In this document: positions 1-64,000 of the stretch, piece by piece
How the letters are laid out: each line of letters opens with the position of its first letter
Numbering within the stretch: position 1 is the stretch's first letter
Virus record (IMG/VR): IMGVR_UViG_3300035670_000091
From: a virus
Length of the DNA: 64,000 nucleotides
Direction: 5' to 3' (one strand)
The notes under the pieces: model-generated
Told to the model about the DNA's origin: nothing
The model's database searches: none
The model's input: the letters and a program-made list of their open reading frames with translations, nothing else
Position numbers and translations under genes: made by a program

Positions 1-710
1 GTGATTATGTGTCCGTTAATTGAACCATGCCTAGCTGGAATGGTTACTATTGAATTGCTGTTTGGGTAGTCTACCCCGTTGTAACGAAGCCAGACCCGTA
101 CATCATGGTCAGAAGAGTCAGTATTTGAAAACTGACCTGACCACTGCAGGTTATACGTTCCTACGTTAGAAATCGTTATCTTGCTGCCATCAACTATGGA
201 CATGTTGCTAGCAAAATCAACTGTGTTTAGCGAGATTGCTTGCGGAGTGTTGATAGTAGCTTGAGTCTGAGTAGTGGTGTCGTAAAACGAACCATAGTTT
301 CTTTCCATTAGCTTCGTAGCTAAATTAAGTAGGGTCTGCGTAACATCCAGCTCTGTAGTGGTATTAGTTACTGGGACCTGCTCAATAAGGAAGTCAATCT
401 CCTCAAAGACATCGTCGGGGTCTAACCTATTTAGTTGCAGCTTAGAGTTGGTACTTTGGTCTTTACCAAACACCCCATGCCAAACAGGGTAAGCGGGGTC
501 GCCTCCCTCAAACATAACCCATACCCCCTGGCCAACATCAGGCAGGGGAACTTGCACTCCAGAGATGTTTATAGGCCAAGCCCACTCTGTGTGCGAGTCA
601 GCAAACAGCTGAGGAACCTTTAGTCGCAGACGCCCCTGATTAAGAGGGTCTTTGTTGCTGAATACGGTTCCCCTGTAAACCCCAGGGTAGTAATTACTAG
701 GACCAGGCAT
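1..710 (-). CDS. Baseplate spike-like protein, gp5/VgrG OB-fold N-terminus plus C-terminal beta domain (runs off the window; not in ORF track)
   Basis: Hand translation from ATG 710 (TAATG overlap with upstream stop) is open to base 1: MPGPSNYYPGVYRGTVFSNKDPLNQGRLRLKVPQL...WAWP...GQGVWVMFEGGDPAYPVW, the gp5 OB-fold signature. Confidence 0.85.
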   Translation of the reverse strand, partial: MPGPSNYYPGVYRGTVFSNKDPLNQGRLRLKVPQLFADSHTEWAWPINISGVQVPLPDVGQGVWVMFEGGDPAYPVWHGVFGKDQSTNSKLQLNRLDPDDVFEEIDFLIEQVPVTNTTTELDVTQTLLNLATKLMERNYGSFYDTTTQTQATINTPQAISLNTVDFASNMSIVDGSKITISNVGTYNLQWSGQFSNTDSSDHDVRVWLRYNGVDYPNSNSIVTIPARHGSINGHII

Positions 711-50214: not shown

Positions 50215-50287
50215 CCAGTAAGTTCGTAGGGCTGCGACTTTAGGTGTTATATAACCCCAAGTCCGTTACGAAGGAACTTACTGTTTG

Positions 50288-50359
50288 CTCTCCCCCCTGG
50301 GGTCGAACCAGGAACCACCCGATTAACAGTCGGACGCTCTGCCATTGAGCTAGGGGAGA
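50288..50359 (-). tRNA. trnN: tRNA-Asn (GTT), CCA not encoded
   Basis: Full cloverleaf: TCTCCCC/GGGGAGA acceptor, GCTC/GAGC D-stem, CTGTTAA anticodon loop, CCTGG-TTCGACC-CCAGG T-arm, G discriminator. Confidence 0.95.
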
Positions 50360-56770: not shown

Positions 56771-57325
56771 TCAGACTAAAGATTTCAAATACTCAAACAC
56801 CAAAAGGTGCCTTTTTGCGTCCCACTCTGCGTCGTGCGGCTTGTAGTCGTCTACTGCAGCGTGCGCACGGTTCATCGAGTCGCTCTTCCACGTCTCAAAA
56901 TTTTTGCCATCCTTGCCGTGGAACAACCACATCATCCCGTTTAGCTCGGCGGTCCGCCTGGACAGCAGCGCATACGTCTTTGGCAACTGCATTTTGATAA
57001 ATGGCAGGTCGAACCCCGTTATGTTGAATCCGACAGGCACATTTTTCTCTCTACGCTTGGGGTGAGCGCCCCTGTCAATCAGCCACTGGTGCAGTTCGGT
57101 GTCAACGCTATCCTGAGAACGCCCCTGCTGTATGACTGTCTCGTACGAAATGCCGTGCACCGCTGCCGCTCTGGCCTCCCAGGTCATCTCGCCAGGGTTG
57201 ATAAGCCAGCCTTGGGAGTCAATTTGGCCATCTGGCAGTCTGACGGCTACGCCAATCTGGATGAGTCGGCCGCCCTCGGCCAAATTTGGCGTACTCATCT
57301 CGCCGTCAATCCCAATAAATAGCAT
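56771..57325 (-). CDS. DEDDh 3'-5' exonuclease (DnaQ/oligoribonuclease-like)
   Basis: FIGIDGEMS, GFN.TGFDLPFI, HDAEWDA. Confidence 0.88.
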   Translation of the reverse strand: MLFIGIDGEMSTPNLAEGGRLIQIGVAVRLPDGQIDSQGWLINPGEMTWEARAAAVHGISYETVIQQGRSQDSVDTELHQWLIDRGAHPKRREKNVPVGFNITGFDLPFIKMQLPKTYALLSRRTAELNGMMWLFHGKDGKNFETWKSDSMNRAHAAVDDYKPHDAEWDAKRHLLVFEYLKSLV

Positions 57326-57331
57326 CCGACA

Positions 57332-57340
57332 AGGGTACCA
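57332..57340 (-). promoter_or_regulatory. Extended -10 promoter for a leaderless mRNA
   Basis: TGG-TACCCT-N6-ATG. Confidence 0.65.
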
Positions 57341-58219
57341 AACGGCAGGGGCGCTGTCAGGATAGCCGTCAGGCGTCCGACAGGGGGGGAAAAAGTGACT
57401 AAAGTGACCAAAGATAACGATTTGGTAACGATGACTGCGCTAGTTGTGGCGATTTTCGTGCTATGGCACAAAAAACTGCGGATTCCGCACTGTTTTGGGC
57501 CTTAAAACGTCATTTTTCGTGCGTTAGCACAGATTTTGCCACGATAAGCGTGGCTGGACGTCGGCTACTGCCTCAGAAAGTAGACGTGACCTGGGTGTTT
57601 CACCTGGGGGGAACTTTGTGGCAGCGTCGCCTAACCCTCCCCCCCTTGCTGACGGCTGTCTACCCCCCCTTGACGGCCGTCAGGCATCCGTCACCACCCT
57701 GCCCCCTGACTCGCAGTCAGGTGGCACACCCCTGCAACCCGCTCCACAGCTGGGCTGACGGCCTGCTCGGTGGCACACCCGATGGCGGGCCAGCCCGACC
57801 ACCCCTGCCACCCCTGCCAAGGTGGCCAGTTCGGCTACTGCTGGGCCAGCTGGTCGGCCTGTGTGGGAGCCACCAGACCACCACTACCACCCCCCTGCTG
57901 TTACCAGCTACGAGGCCAGCCAGCGACCCACTGAGACCAGCAGGCCAGCCCAGCCAGTGGGTGTGTCTCTCTCTCTCCTCTGGAGCCTCTACAGGACCTC
58001 ATGGACCCTGCTCCCGACCAAGGGGGGAGGACCCCCCTGAGACCCCCCCGAAGGCCATGTGGCAGGGGCGCTTCTAGGCCAGCCCTACGGACGGCTAACG
58101 GCCGTTGTTACCAAACTGTTACAAACGCCGACAACCCAGTGCTGGTGCGGGTTGTGGGCCATCCCGACACGCCCAACGGACAGACGTGTTGGACTTTCCA
58201 ACACAGCTGTGCTTTACTG

Positions 58220-58830
58220 GTTCCTGTCGGCGGTAGGGCAACCGAGTCGGCAGGGCCCTCAGCCCCCCGAGAGGGGGGCGGGGGCACCACCCGAAACTTC
58301 ACAACTCCACAGCAGACTTGCAAAACCCCAGCTGTATGGCTGGCACTGGCGCATCGCTTCGGTGCGTTGCTTGCGGACACCCTCGGCCATCGGCCACCGT
58401 CCGCCTCTCTCGGCAACGCCTCTACCGCACAGCGGTCACGCCCCAGTCCCAAACCGCAGTGGCAACACCGTAAACGACCCCTGTCAGGGCAACGTGATAC
58501 CCACTCTGCGGAGTGGCGGTGAGTAGCCTGTAGGGAGGATGCTCGATACCAACCATGTGAAACGTTGGCGGTGTGCACTGCGTGCCGAGTAGGGACTGGT
58601 AATCCCAACGCAGTCAGTATGAACGACCAAGTAGGGCTTCGGCCCAAGTGCCATCTGCTTCAAGGCTCAGCCAGTGTCCCGCAGGAGGGACGGTCGTGAC
58701 AGTTACCCCATCAGTCTTTGGTGCAGGGGCGCTTCGGTGTCCCTGCCCACTGATAGGCACAGGGGGGCAACCCCCCTGAGACCCCCCCTTGTCTCGCCTC
58801 CCTGTGCTTACCAGTGGCTGTGCCACTATC
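58220..58830 (+). ncRNA. Candidate large structured RNA / 5' leader, family not identified
   Basis: At least 10 stems readable by eye, including two C(UUCG)G and two GNRA loops and nested multiloops. Confidence 0.55.
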
Positions 58831-58851
58831 CGACACGACTAAGGAGAAACC

Positions 58852-59079
58852 ATGTTCAAGTTCCACTTCACCGCCAACACCCCGACCCGTAAGCCAACCC
58901 GCTACGGTTGGGTTCCAAACGTGGAGGGCTGGGTGTTCGCTCAGTCCATCGACCACGCCGAGGGCCTGCTACAGGCCAAGGGCTGGAGGCGCATCAGCCT
59001 GACCCGCTACAACAAGGACACCGAGTTCCAGCCACACTGGGCCACCGAAGGGTGCGACTGGGTGGAGGTGAACGCCTAA
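58852..59079 (+). CDS. Hypothetical protein (75 aa)
   Basis: TAAGGAG RBS. Confidence 0.8.
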   Translation: MFKFHFTANTPTRKPTRYGWVPNVEGWVFAQSIDHAEGLLQAKGWRRISLTRYNKDTEFQPHWATEGCDWVEVNA

Positions 59080-59083
59080 CCAA

Positions 59084-59141
59084 GGTCGAAACCGAGCTCC
59101 CCCCAGCTCGGTCTGCCAGTCATGCTGGCACTGACGAGACC
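59084..59141 (+). ncRNA. Type II hammerhead ribozyme 1 (predicted cleavage 59113/59114)
   Basis: GGTC-GAAA-stem III ACCGAGCT/AGCTCGGT-C-stem I TGCCAG/CTGGCA-CTGACGA-GACC. Confidence 0.93.
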
Positions 59142-59174
59142 GTATCCAATCCGACTCAACTAAGGAGAAGCACC

Positions 59175-59303
59175 ATGGGACTACAAGCTAAGTTCGAAGA
59201 CGGCACCGAGGTGTTCGTCACCATCACCCCTGACCTGTATTCCGAGACCCTGACGGCCCTTATCAAGGCGGGCGCTGTCTCAGTGGATTACATCGCCCTG
59301 TGA
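59175..59303 (+). CDS. 42-aa protein MGLQAKFEDGTEVFVTITPDLYSETLTALIKAGAVSVDYIAL
   Basis: TAAGGAG RBS; sits between the two hammerheads. Confidence 0.75.
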   Translation: MGLQAKFEDGTEVFVTITPDLYSETLTALIKAGAVSVDYIAL

Positions 59304-59307
59304 CCAA

Positions 59308-59363
59308 GGTCGAAACAGTGGGCCACCCCACTGTCTGCTGGTTAGGCCAGCACTGACGAGACC
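59308..59363 (+). ncRNA. Type II hammerhead ribozyme 2 (predicted cleavage 59335/59336)
   Basis: GGTC-GAAA-stem III ACAGTGGG/CCCACTGT-C-stem I TGCTGG/CCAGCA-CTGACGA-GACC. Confidence 0.93.
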
Positions 59364-59403
59364 GTCAGCCATCACCAATCCGACACGACTAAGGAGACAA
59401 CCC

Positions 59404-60774
59404 ATGTTCGGAGTAATCATTCAGCACACTGGCGCATCGGCATCCGAGCCAGCCCAGACCCTGCTCGTCCCATTCAACGGTGCCACGCTGGTGTTCCAGC
59501 GTGACGGCGTTGGCAAGCGTGGCTCAGCAGGAGCGTGGCGCAGGGAGCCTAGCCCTAGCCTCGCCAGCACCAAGGTCATTGGAGCCCCAGTGGCCGTCCG
59601 TCTGACAGAGTCAGACATCGACACCCTCGGTATCCACGAGACCAACCCAGCCATCCTGCCGAACGTCCTGTTCCAGAAGGCTGACCGCAAGGTCCGCAAG
59701 TTCACGTCCGTCACCAGCCACGCTGTGGCCGAGGTCGTGGCCGAGATTGACAAGAGCCTGTCCGTCGACCCATCAGGCGCAGGCCTGTCCCGCTTCGACG
59801 GCCGTCGTGTGCTCATTGACACCCCGAGCATCAAGGTCGTGGCCCCTGCTCCTGTCGTAGCTCCTACGGCTCCAGCTCCTGTGGCATCGGTGCCCGCAAC
59901 AAACCATGCGCCATCCGAGGTCCAGTGGGCCAGCCTCACCGTCCCACAGCTGTCCGACGTGGCCAGCTACCGAGTCCGCACCAACCTGCTCGGTGGCACC
60001 GTCTCGGAGGTCGACGTGTTCGACAAGTGCCGAGCATCCCAGCGCACCGTCTCCATCGTCGGCCACGCTGGCACTGGCAAGACTTCGTCCGTCACCCACT
60101 ACAGCGCACTGCGTGGCCTGCCACTGGTAGTCCTCGAGTGTGACATCGCTCTGGACGAGACCCAGACCGAGGGCACCTACATCCCCACTGGCAACGGCAA
60201 CGAGCTGGTGTGGGCCTACAGCGCTCTGGCCACAGCCATCCGTCAGCCGTCCGTCATTCTGCTCAACGAGCTGTCCCGACTAGCACCCAAGAACGCCTCC
60301 CTGTTCTTGTCCCTGCTGGCCGAGCGCCGTCTGATTGTCGGTCAGCGCCAAGGCGAGGTTATCAACGTCCACCCTGAGTGCCTGATTGTGGCTGACATGA
60401 ACCCAATCGGTTACTCGGGTGTGAGCAAGCAGGACCAAGCCCTGCTCGACCGCTTCAAGTTCGCCGTCACCTACGAATACGACCTAGACATCGACCGCAT
60501 CTGGTGCAAGTCTGAGTCGTTCCTGCGTGAGGTCGTTCAGCACTGGCGCAACAACCAGCAGGCTGACCCAAGTGCCACGCCGTTCAGCCACCGCCTCACC
60601 GAGGCGTTCAGCTGGGCTGTGAGCAACTTCGGGCTCAAGCCAGCAGTGCTCCAGTTGCTGGAGCGCTTCCAGCCAACCGAGCGTGACGTTCTCAAGCTCA
60701 CCATTTCCAAGTCGGCCACCGAAATCGCCAGCGAGTTTGGCGTGGACGTGGACGGCATCGACACCCTGCTCTAA
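59404..60774 (+). CDS. MoxR-type AAA+ ATPase (CobS/CbbQ-like)
   Basis: IVGHAGTGKTS Walker A, VILLNELSR Walker B variant, ADMNP.GYSG, ALLDRF arginine finger. Confidence 0.88.
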   Translation: MFGVIIQHTGASASEPAQTLLVPFNGATLVFQRDGVGKRGSAGAWRREPSPSLASTKVIGAPVAVRLTESDIDTLGIHETNPAILPNVLFQKADRKVRKFTSVTSHAVAEVVAEIDKSLSVDPSGAGLSRFDGRRVLIDTPSIKVVAPAPVVAPTAPAPVASVPATNHAPSEVQWASLTVPQLSDVASYRVRTNLLGGTVSEVDVFDKCRASQRTVSIVGHAGTGKTSSVTHYSALRGLPLVVLECDIALDETQTEGTYIPTGNGNELVWAYSALATAIRQPSVILLNELSRLAPKNASLFLSLLAERRLIVGQRQGEVINVHPECLIVADMNPIGYSGVSKQDQALLDRFKFAVTYEYDLDIDRIWCKSESFLREVVQHWRNNQQADPSATPFSHRLTEAFSWAVSNFGLKPAVLQLLERFQPTERDVLKLTISKSATEIASEFGVDVDGIDTLL

Positions 60775-60793
60775 TCCGAAAGCGAGTTCTATC

Positions 60794-62779
60794 GTGAGCA
60801 TCCAGTTCGGCCTCAACCAAGAGGCAATCCAGCACGACAGTGCCATCCGCATGACTCAGGTCGTGCAACAGTTCGCCACCATGTTCGTTGGTCGCAAGGT
60901 CGGTGTTCGCTTGTCGAACAACACCGTTGCGCCAGCATGGTCGACCAGCAACACCATCGAGTTCAGCGAGCCTCAGCTCCCTGACCTACAGACTGCTGAC
61001 GGCGTGCTATCCGTTAGGGGCCTGACGTTCCACGAGCTGAGCCACATCCTGTTCACCCCTCGTGCTCAGTCGGACATCGCCATCTGGGTGCGGGACAACA
61101 GCTACGGCTCAGCGTTCAACGCCCTCGAGGACCAGCGCATCGAGACCCTGATTACCGCTCGGTATGGGGCCCTCAAGCTCTGGCTCACTGGCACCATCGC
61201 CCAGCACCTGTTCCACTCGCCTCAGGCTATCTCGCAGGCGTTCCCGCTGGTTCGTGGTCGCAAGTATCTGCCAGTGGAGCTCCGCAAGCTGGCACGTGAC
61301 CGCTACGCCAACCCGCAGGACATCGACGAGCTCGCCAGCATCATCGACGAGTATCGCCTCCTGCTGTTCCCTCAGGACACCGAGCGTGCCAAGCCACTTA
61401 TCGCACGCTACGCCGAGCTGGTCCGCAACCTGCCTGAGCAGGGTGCTGGCATGCCTGACCCATACGGCCACAGCTCACGCCCTGACTCCGAGCACCACTC
61501 CAGCATCAAGGACAAGCCACTCAGCAAGTCCGAGCAGGAGCGCACTCGTGAGCGTGCCAAGGCACAGGACGAGCAGGTCGAGGACGAGGACGAGTTCAAC
61601 TGGGGCAACCCTGACCAGCAGGACGAGGACCGCAACAAACCATCCGACACCGACGAGCAGGACACTGACTCTGACGGCCAGCCATCGGACAGCGAGTCCG
61701 ACAGCACCGACTCTGACGAGTCCGCATCCGACAGCGACAGCGACTCCGACAGCGAGTCCGACAGCACCGACAGCTCCGACAGCGACTCCGACATCGACGG
61801 CGAGCCAACGGACAACGTGTCCGACAGCTACGGTGACGGACAGTCCGACAACGACCACGAGTCCGACAGCACCGAGACCAGCTCTGGTTCCGACCTGAGC
61901 AAGGCCAACGCTGAGGTTCGTGAGCTCATGGAGGACGTGCTCGACTCGCTCAAGCAGTCGCTCGGTTCAGCCATCGCTGACGAGGTGGCCAAGTATGGCG
62001 GTGACGTAGTCCTGCAGGGCATCCCTGCCAAGACCCCACGTCCTGCCTACAACTACCCTGAGGTTGTCTCAGGTGGCGGTGTTCAGGCATCCGTTGCGTT
62101 CAAGCAGGAGCTCCTCAAGCTCAAGCAGGAGCACGACCCAAGCTGGGACCGCAAGGTTCGCAAAGGCCGTCTCAACCCACTGCGTTACGCTCAGGGCCAC
62201 GACATCGACGAGCTGTTCGACAAGTTCGAGCATGGTCGTGACGATGCTGTGGACATCGAGGCTGTAATTCTGCTGGACACCAGCGGTTCAATGTCAGGTG
62301 ACAACATCCGTCGGGCCAACGAGTCCCTGTGGGGTCTCAAGTCCGCTCTGGATGCCGTCAACGCCTCCTGCACTGCGGTGACGTTCAGTAGCGATGCCAG
62401 ACTGCTCTACTCAGCAGACGAGCGTGTGAGCTCCATCATGCGCTTCGCCCCTGCTCAGGGTGGCACTGACCCGCTCGAGGCCCTCCAGTATGCCAACCAC
62501 GTGCTGGCCACCAGCGACCGCAAGGTCAAGGTGCTGTTCGTCATTACTGACGGCGCATGGAACGGTGACGTGGAGCGTGCTGAGCGCATCATCAAGAACC
62601 TGCGAGACGGTGGCGTTGTCACTGCCTTGTCCTACCTTGGTTACGTTGGCGAGTCACTGGCCAACGTTGACCGCCACGAGTGCGAAGCGGTGGCTCACGT
62701 CACCAATGCTTCGGACCTACTCGAGGTCGGCAGGTCGGTAGTCAAGCTGGCTATCGCTCGCAACCTAGTCAACGCTTAG
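60794..62779 (+). CDS. vWA domain protein (CobT-like) with N-terminal HExxH domain and acidic Ser/Asp linker
   Basis: FHELSH...NALEDQRIE; LLDTSGSM, GGTD, ITDG MIDAS; in-frame GTG 60794 avoids overlap with the ATPase. Confidence 0.88.
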   Translation: MSIQFGLNQEAIQHDSAIRMTQVVQQFATMFVGRKVGVRLSNNTVAPAWSTSNTIEFSEPQLPDLQTADGVLSVRGLTFHELSHILFTPRAQSDIAIWVRDNSYGSAFNALEDQRIETLITARYGALKLWLTGTIAQHLFHSPQAISQAFPLVRGRKYLPVELRKLARDRYANPQDIDELASIIDEYRLLLFPQDTERAKPLIARYAELVRNLPEQGAGMPDPYGHSSRPDSEHHSSIKDKPLSKSEQERTRERAKAQDEQVEDEDEFNWGNPDQQDEDRNKPSDTDEQDTDSDGQPSDSESDSTDSDESASDSDSDSDSESDSTDSSDSDSDIDGEPTDNVSDSYGDGQSDNDHESDSTETSSGSDLSKANAEVRELMEDVLDSLKQSLGSAIADEVAKYGGDVVLQGIPAKTPRPAYNYPEVVSGGGVQASVAFKQELLKLKQEHDPSWDRKVRKGRLNPLRYAQGHDIDELFDKFEHGRDDAVDIEAVILLDTSGSMSGDNIRRANESLWGLKSALDAVNASCTAVTFSSDARLLYSADERVSSIMRFAPAQGGTDPLEALQYANHVLATSDRKVKVLFVITDGAWNGDVERAERIIKNLRDGGVVTALSYLGYVGESLANVDRHECEAVAHVTNASDLLEVGRSVVKLAIARNLVNA

Positions 62780-62786
62780 TTGACTC

Positions 62787-62827
62787 AGCCCTGACGGACA
62801 GCAGTTGTCTCCCTGTCCGTCAGGGCT
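62787..62827 (+). terminator. 15-bp perfect hairpin (terminator or processing site, no U-tract)
   Basis: AGCCCTGACGGACAG / CTGTCCGTCAGGGCT. Confidence 0.55.
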
Positions 62828-62885
62828 CCGCCACAAACCATCCAAACTTCAAACCCTCAACATCCACTTCAACGTTAGGAACATC

Positions 62886-63527
62886 ATGCTAAGCAAGCAG
62901 ATTCTCGCACTACCCCTCGGCACCGAGCTGGTTGTATCCAGCCGTTACCTTGGTCACCGAGTTGCCCACAAGGACAACAAGACCCCTGAGCGCATCAAGG
63001 AGCACGATGCTCACGTCGGCACGCTCTACGCTTACGACAACTACGAGGAGTCCCACTACCGCTCCAACACCGACCACCACTCGGACTGGACCAAGACCAC
63101 CACTGACCGCACCAAGCGATTCCTGCTCAAGTTCAAGGACACCGCAGGCTCCGACGTGTGGGCCATCATCCCTGTGCAGGACATCATCGCCACCAAGGTT
63201 GAGGTTGAGCCACGCTGGGCACAGGAGCGCACTGAGCGGGCCATCGCTCAGGCAGAGGCTGACCGCATCGCACAAGCCCAGCAGGCCATCGAGGAGAAGC
63301 GCAAGCTGACCGAAGAGAGTGTCAAAGAGGCCGTCCACACCAGCCTGCTCGAGCTCTTCGGTGCTGACTACTCAAACAAGGGTGTCCGCATTGGCTACAT
63401 CCGCACCTACAGCAGGGTGAACGCTGGTCCTGACGGCCAGCTCACAACCAAGCTGGAGAACGGTGGAGACATCGAAATCCCTGTGGACCTATTCCTTCGC
63501 ATGGTCGAGCGCTTCGCCAGCGAGTAA
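62886..63527 (+). CDS. Hypothetical protein
   Basis: TTAGGA RBS before ATG 62886; C-ending codon bias like neighbours. Confidence 0.75.
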   Translation: MLSKQILALPLGTELVVSSRYLGHRVAHKDNKTPERIKEHDAHVGTLYAYDNYEESHYRSNTDHHSDWTKTTTDRTKRFLLKFKDTAGSDVWAIIPVQDIIATKVEVEPRWAQERTERAIAQAEADRIAQAQQAIEEKRKLTEESVKEAVHTSLLELFGADYSNKGVRIGYIRTYSRVNAGPDGQLTTKLENGGDIEIPVDLFLRMVERFASE

Positions 63528-63535
63528 CACCAACA

Positions 63536-63633
63536 GCCAGACCAGCAGACACCGAGGTGCGAGTCCTCGGCTGGCACGAGTGCCGAACCAATCAGTAGGC
63601 CCTACAGACCTGAGCACGTCGCTAAACGGCTCA
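63536..63633 (+). ncRNA. Candidate structured intergenic RNA with T-loop-like hairpin
   Basis: CCGAGG-TGCGAGT-CCTCGG plus three further stems. Confidence 0.45.
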
Positions 63634-63660
63634 CCCATCCGACAACACTAAGGAGCACCA

Positions 63661-64000
63661 ATGACCACCACGTTCAAGCCAGCTGGCGCACCAGCCAGCA
63701 ACCAATACGGCCAGTTCACTGTCCGTTACGCATCACCTGCCCAACAGCGATACATCCGTCAGCTGTTGGACGAACGCCAGCACGACTTCGGGGAGGACTT
63801 CGACCCAGCAACCGTCAACGTGCAGAACGCATCGCACGTCATCGACCAATTGCTACGGACACCTGTCAGAGCCGACAAGGTTGTTCCAGCATCCGACAAG
63901 CAGTTGGCATTCATCGAGTCGCTGAAGACCCAGCGTCAAGGTGCGGTCCAGTTCCTGACGGACTACCTTGCCCTACACAAGTCCGACAGCTTGTCAGCCC
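63661..64000 (+). CDS. Hypothetical protein, truncated by window end (not in ORF track)
   Basis: MTTTFKPAGAP...; internal repeat ASPAQQRYIRQL / ASDKQLAFIESL; TAAGGAG RBS. Confidence 0.75.
   Translation, partial: MTTTFKPAGAPASNQYGQFTVRYASPAQQRYIRQLLDERQHDFGEDFDPATVNVQNASHVIDQLLRTPVRADKVVPASDKQLAFIESLKTQRQGAVQFLTDYLALHKSDSLSA

Follow-up and report, generated by a model that had tools for sequence, protein, structure and literature searches.

Why bacteriophages carry hammerhead ribozymes has been a question since 2011, and it is raised again by an early operon on the plus strand of IMG/VR virus record IMGVR_UViG_3300035670_000091, of which we analyzed a stretch of 64,000 nucleotides (nt), here called the window. 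A preliminary description, made from the sequence alone, had portrayed positions 58220 to 63660 as an operon cut by RNA elements at nearly every gene boundary into separately regulated units, without host RNases. Everything it reported was found on the plus strand and in the same order: a large structured leader, an open reading frame (ORF; g1), a hammerhead, a second ORF (g2), a second hammerhead, the genes of an AAA+ ATPase (g3) and of a vWA-domain protein, a 15-bp hairpin, an ORF (g5), a T-loop element (here the minihelix), and a last ORF (g6). Our findings favor, with a probability of roughly 0.55, a model where one early transcript is divided by the hammerheads and by a host-processed minihelix, and is bounded by a hairpin that does not cut. 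The lineage offers a natural experiment on the 2011 question, the same boundary bearing either a hammerhead or the uncatalogued minihelix. The mixed punctuation of one operon, the exchange of hammerhead and minihelix, and a hairpin loop complementary to a ribosome binding site (RBS) are new here, while the hammerheads add a further case to an arrangement already known.

The exchange was seen by comparison with related loci. An IMG/VR scan with the ATPase as a single protein gave no relative, and a search of INPHARED for near-identical DNA gave no match; 54 ATPase homologues led to syntenic contigs at identities from 89% down to 39%. At the boundary after g5, 10 loci have the minihelix and L037 has a hammerhead; the upstream protein of L037 is equivalent to g5 by position and weakly homologous to it (E 9e-6). 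The reverse is seen before the ATPase gene, a boundary occupied by a hammerhead here and in six relatives, and by a minihelix in L114 and L115; the upstream gene at this boundary of L115 is the orthologue of g1 (43% identity). Since the exchange runs both ways at orthologous boundaries, the two elements most simply do the same job, and one of them is a self-cleaving RNA. This suggests that hammerhead and minihelix are both RNA-cutting signals, and provides a first comparative argument that the minihelix acts as one and that the phage has need of cutting rather than of a ribozyme as such. Neither element was found at the loci of distant ATPase homologues (18 loci, 28-37% identity).

Both hammerheads are of type II, and each is placed after a stop codon and ahead of the RBS that follows. 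The first (59084-59141, +) has its predicted cut after GUC at 59113/59114, the second (59308-59363, +) at 59335/59336. They share one order of elements, namely GGUC, GAAA, stem III hairpin, GUC, stem I hairpin, CUGACGA, and GACC, with stem II open, and both retain the full core (CUGACGA / GAAA / GUC) with no mispair beside it. The published type II core (C3-U4-G5-A6-N7-G8-A9, G12-A13-A14, A15.1-U16.1, H17; PMC3088659) is present in both copies. The minimum-energy fold of the first is a three-way junction, and the tail of the second (CAGCCAUCA) matches the Rfam consensus tail; a tertiary contact linking loop I with the tail on the 3' side of stem II would have, by inspection, only 3-4 possible pairs. 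A permissive Rfam scan returned Hammerhead_II matches at 59084-59151 and 59308-59374 (29.3 bits for both; E 0.007 and 0.0073), and R1, our own covariance model built from this hammerhead subtype, gives 67-69 bits (69.3 and 67.5, respectively). Against the assignment, 29.3 bits lies below the RF02276 gathering score of 37, so that only the permissive scan detects the pair. Comparative support is substantial, nonetheless: stems I and III differ in sequence between the two copies with pairing kept, and across 17 sequences 99.6% of cells are paired and five pairs show changes on both sides, a score reached by 0 of 500 shuffles. An exact-core pattern search recovered 20 further, unrelated viral contigs with the same element between a stop codon and a Shine-Dalgarno (SD) sequence with its ATG. 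Nearly all start 0-6 nt past the stop and end 10-35 nt before the SD and start codon, and their stems vary in sequence but always pair. In the synteny survey R1 matched before the ATPase gene in L026, L027 (two copies), L029/30, L031/32, and L036, as well as downstream in L036 (a second copy) and after the g5 equivalent of L037. The two intergenic hammerheads first noticed from the sequence are thus real, and are conserved at gene boundaries in relatives.

In every locus with a hammerhead ahead of the ATPase gene, one or two small ORFs have been inserted between the leader and that gene, and these ORFs are mutually unrelated. Here the slot with a hammerhead on each side is filled by g2 (59175-59303, +; 42 amino acids, aa), which appears to be variable cargo: the ORFs of relatives in this position (35, 36, and 146 aa) are non-homologous. 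By contrast, g1 (58852-59079, +; 75 aa, function unassigned, no Pfam match) is conserved, with 43% identity to the same-position ORF of L115. Such a pattern recalls recombination linkers or passengers of gene cassettes (morons), in which case the repetition of hammerhead- or minihelix-plus-RBS modules would mainly reflect gene shuffling; the hammerhead spacers are moreover paralogous, with 33 nt at 82% identity and shared CCAA...GACCGT...CCAATCCGAC flanks. We regard this as very unlikely to be the main explanation, given that stems I and III have diverged by compensatory changes, which argues for selection on the RNA fold, and that the modules are always oriented with transcription and always placed in the order stop, element, RBS. 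Linker and RNA roles can, besides, coexist. Processing of polycistronic phage RNA by hammerheads was proposed by Perreault et al. (2011; PMC3088659), who reported that polycistronic fragments of ~2 kb are cleaved in vitro and that the ribozymes cleave themselves in vivo. The present ribozymes resemble those prophage hammerheads in type, in their intergenic placement around single genes or short blocks of varying identity, and in their proposed role, the conversion of long phage transcripts into gene-length mRNAs (PMC3088659). They differ in scoring below the Rfam threshold, in occurring in the same operon as two further conserved kinds of element, and in exchanging positions with a non-hammerhead element. 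Ribozyme cutting of phage polycistronic RNA, offered in the preliminary description as a testable function for phage ribozymes, has therefore a precedent, and its central idea was already in print (PMC3088659).

What, then, is the element that takes the place of a hammerhead? The pseudoknotted T-loop minihelix (63536-63577, +) lies between g5 (62886-63527, +; 213 aa, function unassigned, conserved at the same position in all relatives) and g6 (63661-64000, +). It reads GCCAG, an 11-nt bulge, CCGAGG-UGCGAGU-CCUCGG, CUGGC, and then a conserved AC, so that stem P1 is formed by 63536-63540/63571-63575 and stem P2 by 63552-63557/63565-63570; R2, our own covariance model of the minihelix, gives 66.4 bits. 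The T-loop element reported at this boundary is present, but the complete g5/g6 spacer folds no more stably than is usual (z = -0.47), and the support for the minihelix accordingly comes from comparison, not from folding energy. A hairpin-only pattern retrieved 58 viral contigs, some of them holding as many as five copies across successive intergenic gaps. A perfect 5-bp P1 occurs at a fixed distance in 53 of 61 unique minihelix sequences, in 15 distinct versions, and P1 covaries at four of its five pairs (41-sequence alignment); P2 covaries at five of six pairs in this phage clade alone. One bulge base, furthermore, covaries with the last base of the T-loop (AU 21, GC 16, CG 2) and adjoins an invariant C-G pair, from which we infer an H-type pseudoknot geometry. 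The typical place of the element is 2-8 nt past a stop codon, with ~40-55 nt left to the following SD-ATG. R2 does not cover the whole family: this model missed a variant after the g5 equivalent of L115 (12033-12141), with a bulge of ~17 nt and a CGGAG/CUCCG stem.

These features make the minihelix look like a substrate of the host tRNA-processing enzymes. The T-loop signature (equivalents of G53-C61, U54, C56, R57, and A58) is invariant in the 41 sequences, with G at position 55 in this clade, and P1 (5 bp) directly continues the 3' strand of P2 (6 bp) in an acceptor-like stack. A comparable device is known from plant mitochondria, where t-elements, mimics of the acceptor stem and T-arm at mRNA ends, are thought to be signals for RNase P and/or RNase Z (Forner et al. 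2007; PMC1920247). Like the t-elements (PMC1920247), the phage minihelix is an acceptor-stem and T-arm mimic inside a polycistronic RNA; unlike them, it is smaller, keeps a bulge of 11 nt together with a bulge/T-loop pair that covaries, and occurs in phages of unrelated hosts. Several observations fit a tRNA-like substrate poorly. The stack is 11 bp, versus 12 bp in tRNA; P1 is followed by a conserved A and an invariant C, with no CCA end; the pseudoknot pair uses T-loop positions 59-60, as tRNAs do not; and tRNA genes are rarely close, a call on the same strand being made in only 5 of 58 loci (one of undetermined type), at 115 nt from the minihelix in L077 and at about 0.6 kb or more in the other four. 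The minihelix is not itself a tRNA gene, with the D and anticodon arms of a cloverleaf: ARAGORN and the Rfam tRNA model pass it over in the window, and at none of the 58 loci is the motif called as a tRNA.

A new class of small self-cleaving ribozyme would account for the exact occupation of the hammerhead niche and for replacement in both directions, and this boundary too would then be cut without host enzymes. The minihelix is compact, pseudoknotted, and rich in invariant unpaired bases. Earlier ribozyme classes were found in hammerhead-associated neighborhoods, the same kind of setting as here, and one of them, twister-sister, also has an apical T-loop docked on a junction; the clade loop (UGCAAGU/UGCGAGU) resembles what we take to be the twister-sister loop, though the Rfam model gave no match. 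Yet a catalytic core of ~40 nt with only one bulge would be small, no Rfam ribozyme model matched even at E up to 5-10, and a canonical tRNA T-arm that leads into a discriminator-like A and a C is more simply read as a tRNA-enzyme substrate, so that we hold self-cleavage to be quite unlikely. Twister-sister in particular was rejected, its covariance model failing to match the window at E up to 10, or the loci with up to five copies at E up to 5, and its multi-stem junction architecture being absent; no Rfam family of any kind matches the minihelix. Were the minihelix nevertheless self-cleaving, or at least a cutting module exchangeable with hammerheads, actinophages would choose freely between two different RNA cutters at one and the same boundary. 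If, as we favor, host enzymes process it, the earlier proposal that cutting proceeds without host RNases can apply only to the two hammerheads among five elements and probably fails for the minihelix.

The third element type follows a pair of genes that the elements leave joined. The first encodes an AAA_5 (MoxR/CobS-like) ATPase of 456 aa (59404-60774, +; Pfam AAA_5, E 3.5e-15) and the second, with a GTG start, a vWA-domain protein of 661 aa (60794-62779, +; Pfam VWA, E 2.8e-10). Both matches are above the Pfam cut-offs, and this MoxR-type ATPase and its vWA partner are encoded by adjacent genes in all relatives. The gap is 19 nt here, and the junction is of 8-47 nt and free of elements in 12 of 12 related loci, in keeping with the earlier view of an undivided pair. 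N-terminal of its vWA domain, the second protein has a long acidic Ser/Asp-rich repeat (61550-61870; TCCGACAGCGAG units, ~60-nt periodicity). Past the vWA gene lies a perfect inverted repeat (62787-62827, +; loop 62802-62812) that forms the 15-bp hairpin previously noted, with a folding z of -4.9 against shuffled sequence. All 12 loci have a hairpin here, with stems of 13-19 bp and differing sequences, no U-tract, and a C/A-rich spacer downstream; this conservation was judged from individual folds, the MAFFT alignment being too poor for pair counting. The hairpin had no Rfam match and was not present in two examined distant loci (28-37% ATPase identity). It is not an intrinsic terminator, being followed by CCGCCACAAACC instead of a U-tract and absent from the terminator scan; canonical U-tract terminators exist elsewhere in related phages. 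Nor is it probably a cutting site, as had been supposed. Its features look like those of a 3'-end or feedback element.

Feedback is suggested by the loop, whose bases 62804-62812 (GUUGUCUCC) are the exact complement of the RBS of the ATPase gene (GGAGACAAC, 59393-59401), the sole such plus-strand site in the window. Complementarity of 6-10 nt is found in 9 of 11 locus types: 10 nt in L035, where GGAGA/UCUCC has become GGAGG/CCUCC by a compensating A-to-G and U-to-C change, 9 nt in L026 and L027, 8 nt in L036, 7 nt in L033/34, and 6 nt in L037 and L115. In each locus, no gene offers the loop a better target than the ATPase RBS, which ranks first or joint first among all genes. Other facts tell against an interaction: L029/30 and L031/32 have no match, the match is a post hoc observation, its covariation is explicable by one double change on one branch, and 9-nt matches are common when the whole region is searched. 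One of these, which links the RBS of g2 with sequence around the vWA stop (62775), was dismissed as being at chance level. On balance we give a functional pairing of loop and RBS roughly even odds. Bacteria have small RNAs with C-rich anti-SD loops, among them small RNAs derived from 3' untranslated regions, in which a stable hairpin exposes a CUCC-containing loop complementary to an RBS; here, unlike in these, the hairpin stands at the 3' end of the same bicistron whose first RBS its loop matches. A loop of this kind suggests a simple feedback device for a bicistron, which could be useful to synthetic biologists, who already employ ribozyme insulators.

How translation may resume beyond a structured spacer is suggested by a sequence motif. 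The motif ATCCGACNNNACTAAGGAG has exactly four copies in 64 kb, all on the plus strand and each just 5' of a start codon, against a chance expectation of 0.37; four copies were reached in 0 of 100 shuffles. These copies form the RBS modules (ATCCGAC-N3-ACTAAGGAG) of g1 (58828-58846, +), g2 (59149-59167, +), the ATPase gene (59378-59396, +; overlapping the loop partner given above), and g6 (63637-63655, +), all with the exact motif. The motif ends in AAGGAG, a textbook SD, 5-7 nt from each ATG, and is found at every gene that follows a structured spacer, whereas plain coupled SDs serve the tight junctions. It is absent from the more distant L036 and L037, although the RNA elements are kept there. 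The ATCCGAC motif is best read as a stand-alone initiation module, and the restart of each downstream segment with such a module, as first described, is confirmed in that each gene after an element has its own strong RBS module. The Cluster K mycobacteriophages have an analogue in the SAS/ESAS sequences, which precede non-structural genes and are linked with translation initiation (Pope et al. 2011; PMC3203893). These are likewise asymmetric, SD-containing, in one orientation, and a few bases before starts; their 13-bp consensus, however, is GGGATAGGAGCCC, 3-7 bp before starts (PMC3203893), compared with ATCCGAC-N5-TAAGGAG here, and only here is the motif restricted to genes that follow a structured spacer. 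Membership in the Cluster K SAS was rejected for this reason, the position and SD content being analogous and the sequence different. The region 59031-59168 has a weak, non-significant Rfam match to Poribacteria-1 RNA (20.9 bits, E 3.4), whose 3' consensus AAUCGAcUAAGGAGA resembles the ATCCGAC...TAAGGAGA module.

The same motif might be taken to mean that the genes are transcribed from separate promoters, with the 19-nt ATCCGAC...CTAAGGAG being a phage-specific promoter of the T7/T3 kind. The T7 and T3 promoters (AATACGACTCAC...; CACTAAAGGGAGA) are superficially similar to it, and confinement to one strand would fit. This reading is scarcely credible and was rejected: a textbook AAGGAG stands at the motif's end at ideal SD spacing, no TANNNT -10 element accompanies it, no gene for a single-subunit RNA polymerase was seen in the window (largest ORF 698 aa) or in the gene lists of relatives, and L036 and L037 keep the RNA elements without the motif. 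The alternation of strong stand-alone RBSs after every element with simple coupled SDs at tight boundaries is also what would be expected if only the hammerheads cleave and minihelix and hairpin are uncut structural insulators, which uncouple translation, block exonucleases, or bind a protein. The hairpin has no sign of cleavage, and a compact pseudoknot, with the geometry predicted above, could stall exonucleases. However, for that role a plain hairpin would suffice, yet tRNA-like invariant bases are kept across phages of unrelated hosts, and were cutting of no importance, it would be difficult to see why the minihelix and a self-cleaving ribozyme should replace each other; insulation without cutting is thus unlikely.

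Overall, we suggest that the minihelix is cut, and the elements can be assembled into the following scheme. We infer that the plus-strand early operon is transcribed as one long RNA behind its large structured leader, and that three conserved types of RNA element would turn it into segments that are separately stable and separately translated, with corresponding effects on stoichiometry. The hammerheads would cut themselves in vivo a few bases past the stops of g1 and g2, leaving on the upstream piece a stem III hairpin end with a cyclic phosphate, and on the downstream piece a 5'-OH and the stem I hairpin directly before a strong stand-alone RBS. After g5 the minihelix would do the same job, most likely by recruiting host RNase P and/or RNase Z and less likely by self-cleavage. 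The U-less hairpin would close the ATPase-vWA bicistron and protect its 3' end with no cutting, and its loop, if paired with the ATPase RBS, would damp translation of a pair that is kept on one piece and presumably coupled in translation. The whole system covers ~5 kb with predicted cut sites, and is directly testable.

How far does this punctuation extend? A conserved RNA element is found at four of the five gene boundaries within the window, and the operon is divided by them into single genes and short blocks. An element at nearly every boundary, as the preliminary description put it, holds for the first six genes but not for the longer related loci, where 11-13 of 17-19 plus-strand boundaries are tight and element-free. 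This weighs against punctuation as the general rule of the operon. In favor of a single transcript, no sigma-70-like promoter was found in 57000-64000, the scan covering sigma-70 consensus sites only and actinobacterial promoters being poorly modeled. A second minihelix occurs further downstream in most relatives, ~1.85 kb past the first in L026 (the 89% relative), and further punctuation is therefore expected past base 64000. The window ends within g6, whose fragment has no Pfam match; the same-position gene of relatives has DUF6011 (synteny with L026 and L029).

The structured leader (~58220-58851, +) belongs to no known RNA class and had no match in Rfam. It has long invariant blocks among relatives with 45-81% ATPase identity, and RNAalifold yields 111 pairs, 26 of them with changes on both sides. 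Covarying helices with compensatory changes occupy its last ~560 nt, where several invariant G-U pairs fit the plus strand only. The 3' end has a G6-loop-C6 hairpin followed by UGAGA-C7 (58764-58790), and then a small hairpin (58812-58826). The combination of G6-loop-C6 hairpin, UGAGA, and C7 run is present in two copies (58024-58050 and 58764-58790), at positions conserved in relatives, the version of distant relatives being GGGGG-loop-CCCCC-UCGAA-CCCCC. In the RNAalifold model the second C-run (58764-58790 hairpin) is paired with an upstream AGGGAGG, which could act as a switch or pseudoknot. In L115 (7587-7634) and L114 (7917-7964) a minihelix lies between the structured leader and the first gene, which hints that the leader may be released there as a separate RNA.

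The leader occupies part of a gene-free gap of ~1.5 kb between 57325 and the first plus-strand gene (58852). The upstream half of this gap (57326-58200) is strongly conserved as well, with GGCTACTGC(C/T) twice, CACCTGGGGGG, CTAACCCTCCCCCCC, and CTGACTCGCAGTCAGGTGGCAC, and could represent divergent promoters/operators or a second non-coding RNA. At 58175-58215 there is an operator-like palindrome, GTGTTGGA-CTT-TCCAACAC, of which relatives retain TGTTG-N8-CAACA beside TTGGAC...TTTACT; a temperate phage could have its early promoter/operator here.

The rest of the window (1-57325) is filled by minus-strand genes, including those of baseplate, tail sheath, portal, and terminase, which identify a myovirus. 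Its closest isolates are the BRock-like phages of Streptomyces (terminase identity ~50%), and in related contigs WhiB and integrase genes lie further along the same strand; this kinship and gene content point to an uncultured, probably temperate, actinobacterial phage. The metagenomes with this DNA come from the subsurface, soil, and freshwater; among the sequencing runs recorded as RNA, none contained it. The only tRNA detected in the window by ARAGORN and Rfam at gathering thresholds is a tRNA-Asn (GTT) at 50287-50359 (-), inside the long minus-strand operon, a true tRNA that would itself punctuate the minus-strand transcript through RNase P and RNase Z. Two "intergenic" gaps of relatives (L033, 9333-9465; L035, 5732-5963) share a 17-bp hairpin and a Cys-codon-rich sequence, and are probably an uncalled small zinc-ribbon-like ORF, not an RNA element. 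Finally, L037, a relative with 45% identity, has a manA RNA (RF01745) at 178-360 (-), which scores 57 bits against a gathering score of 55.2.

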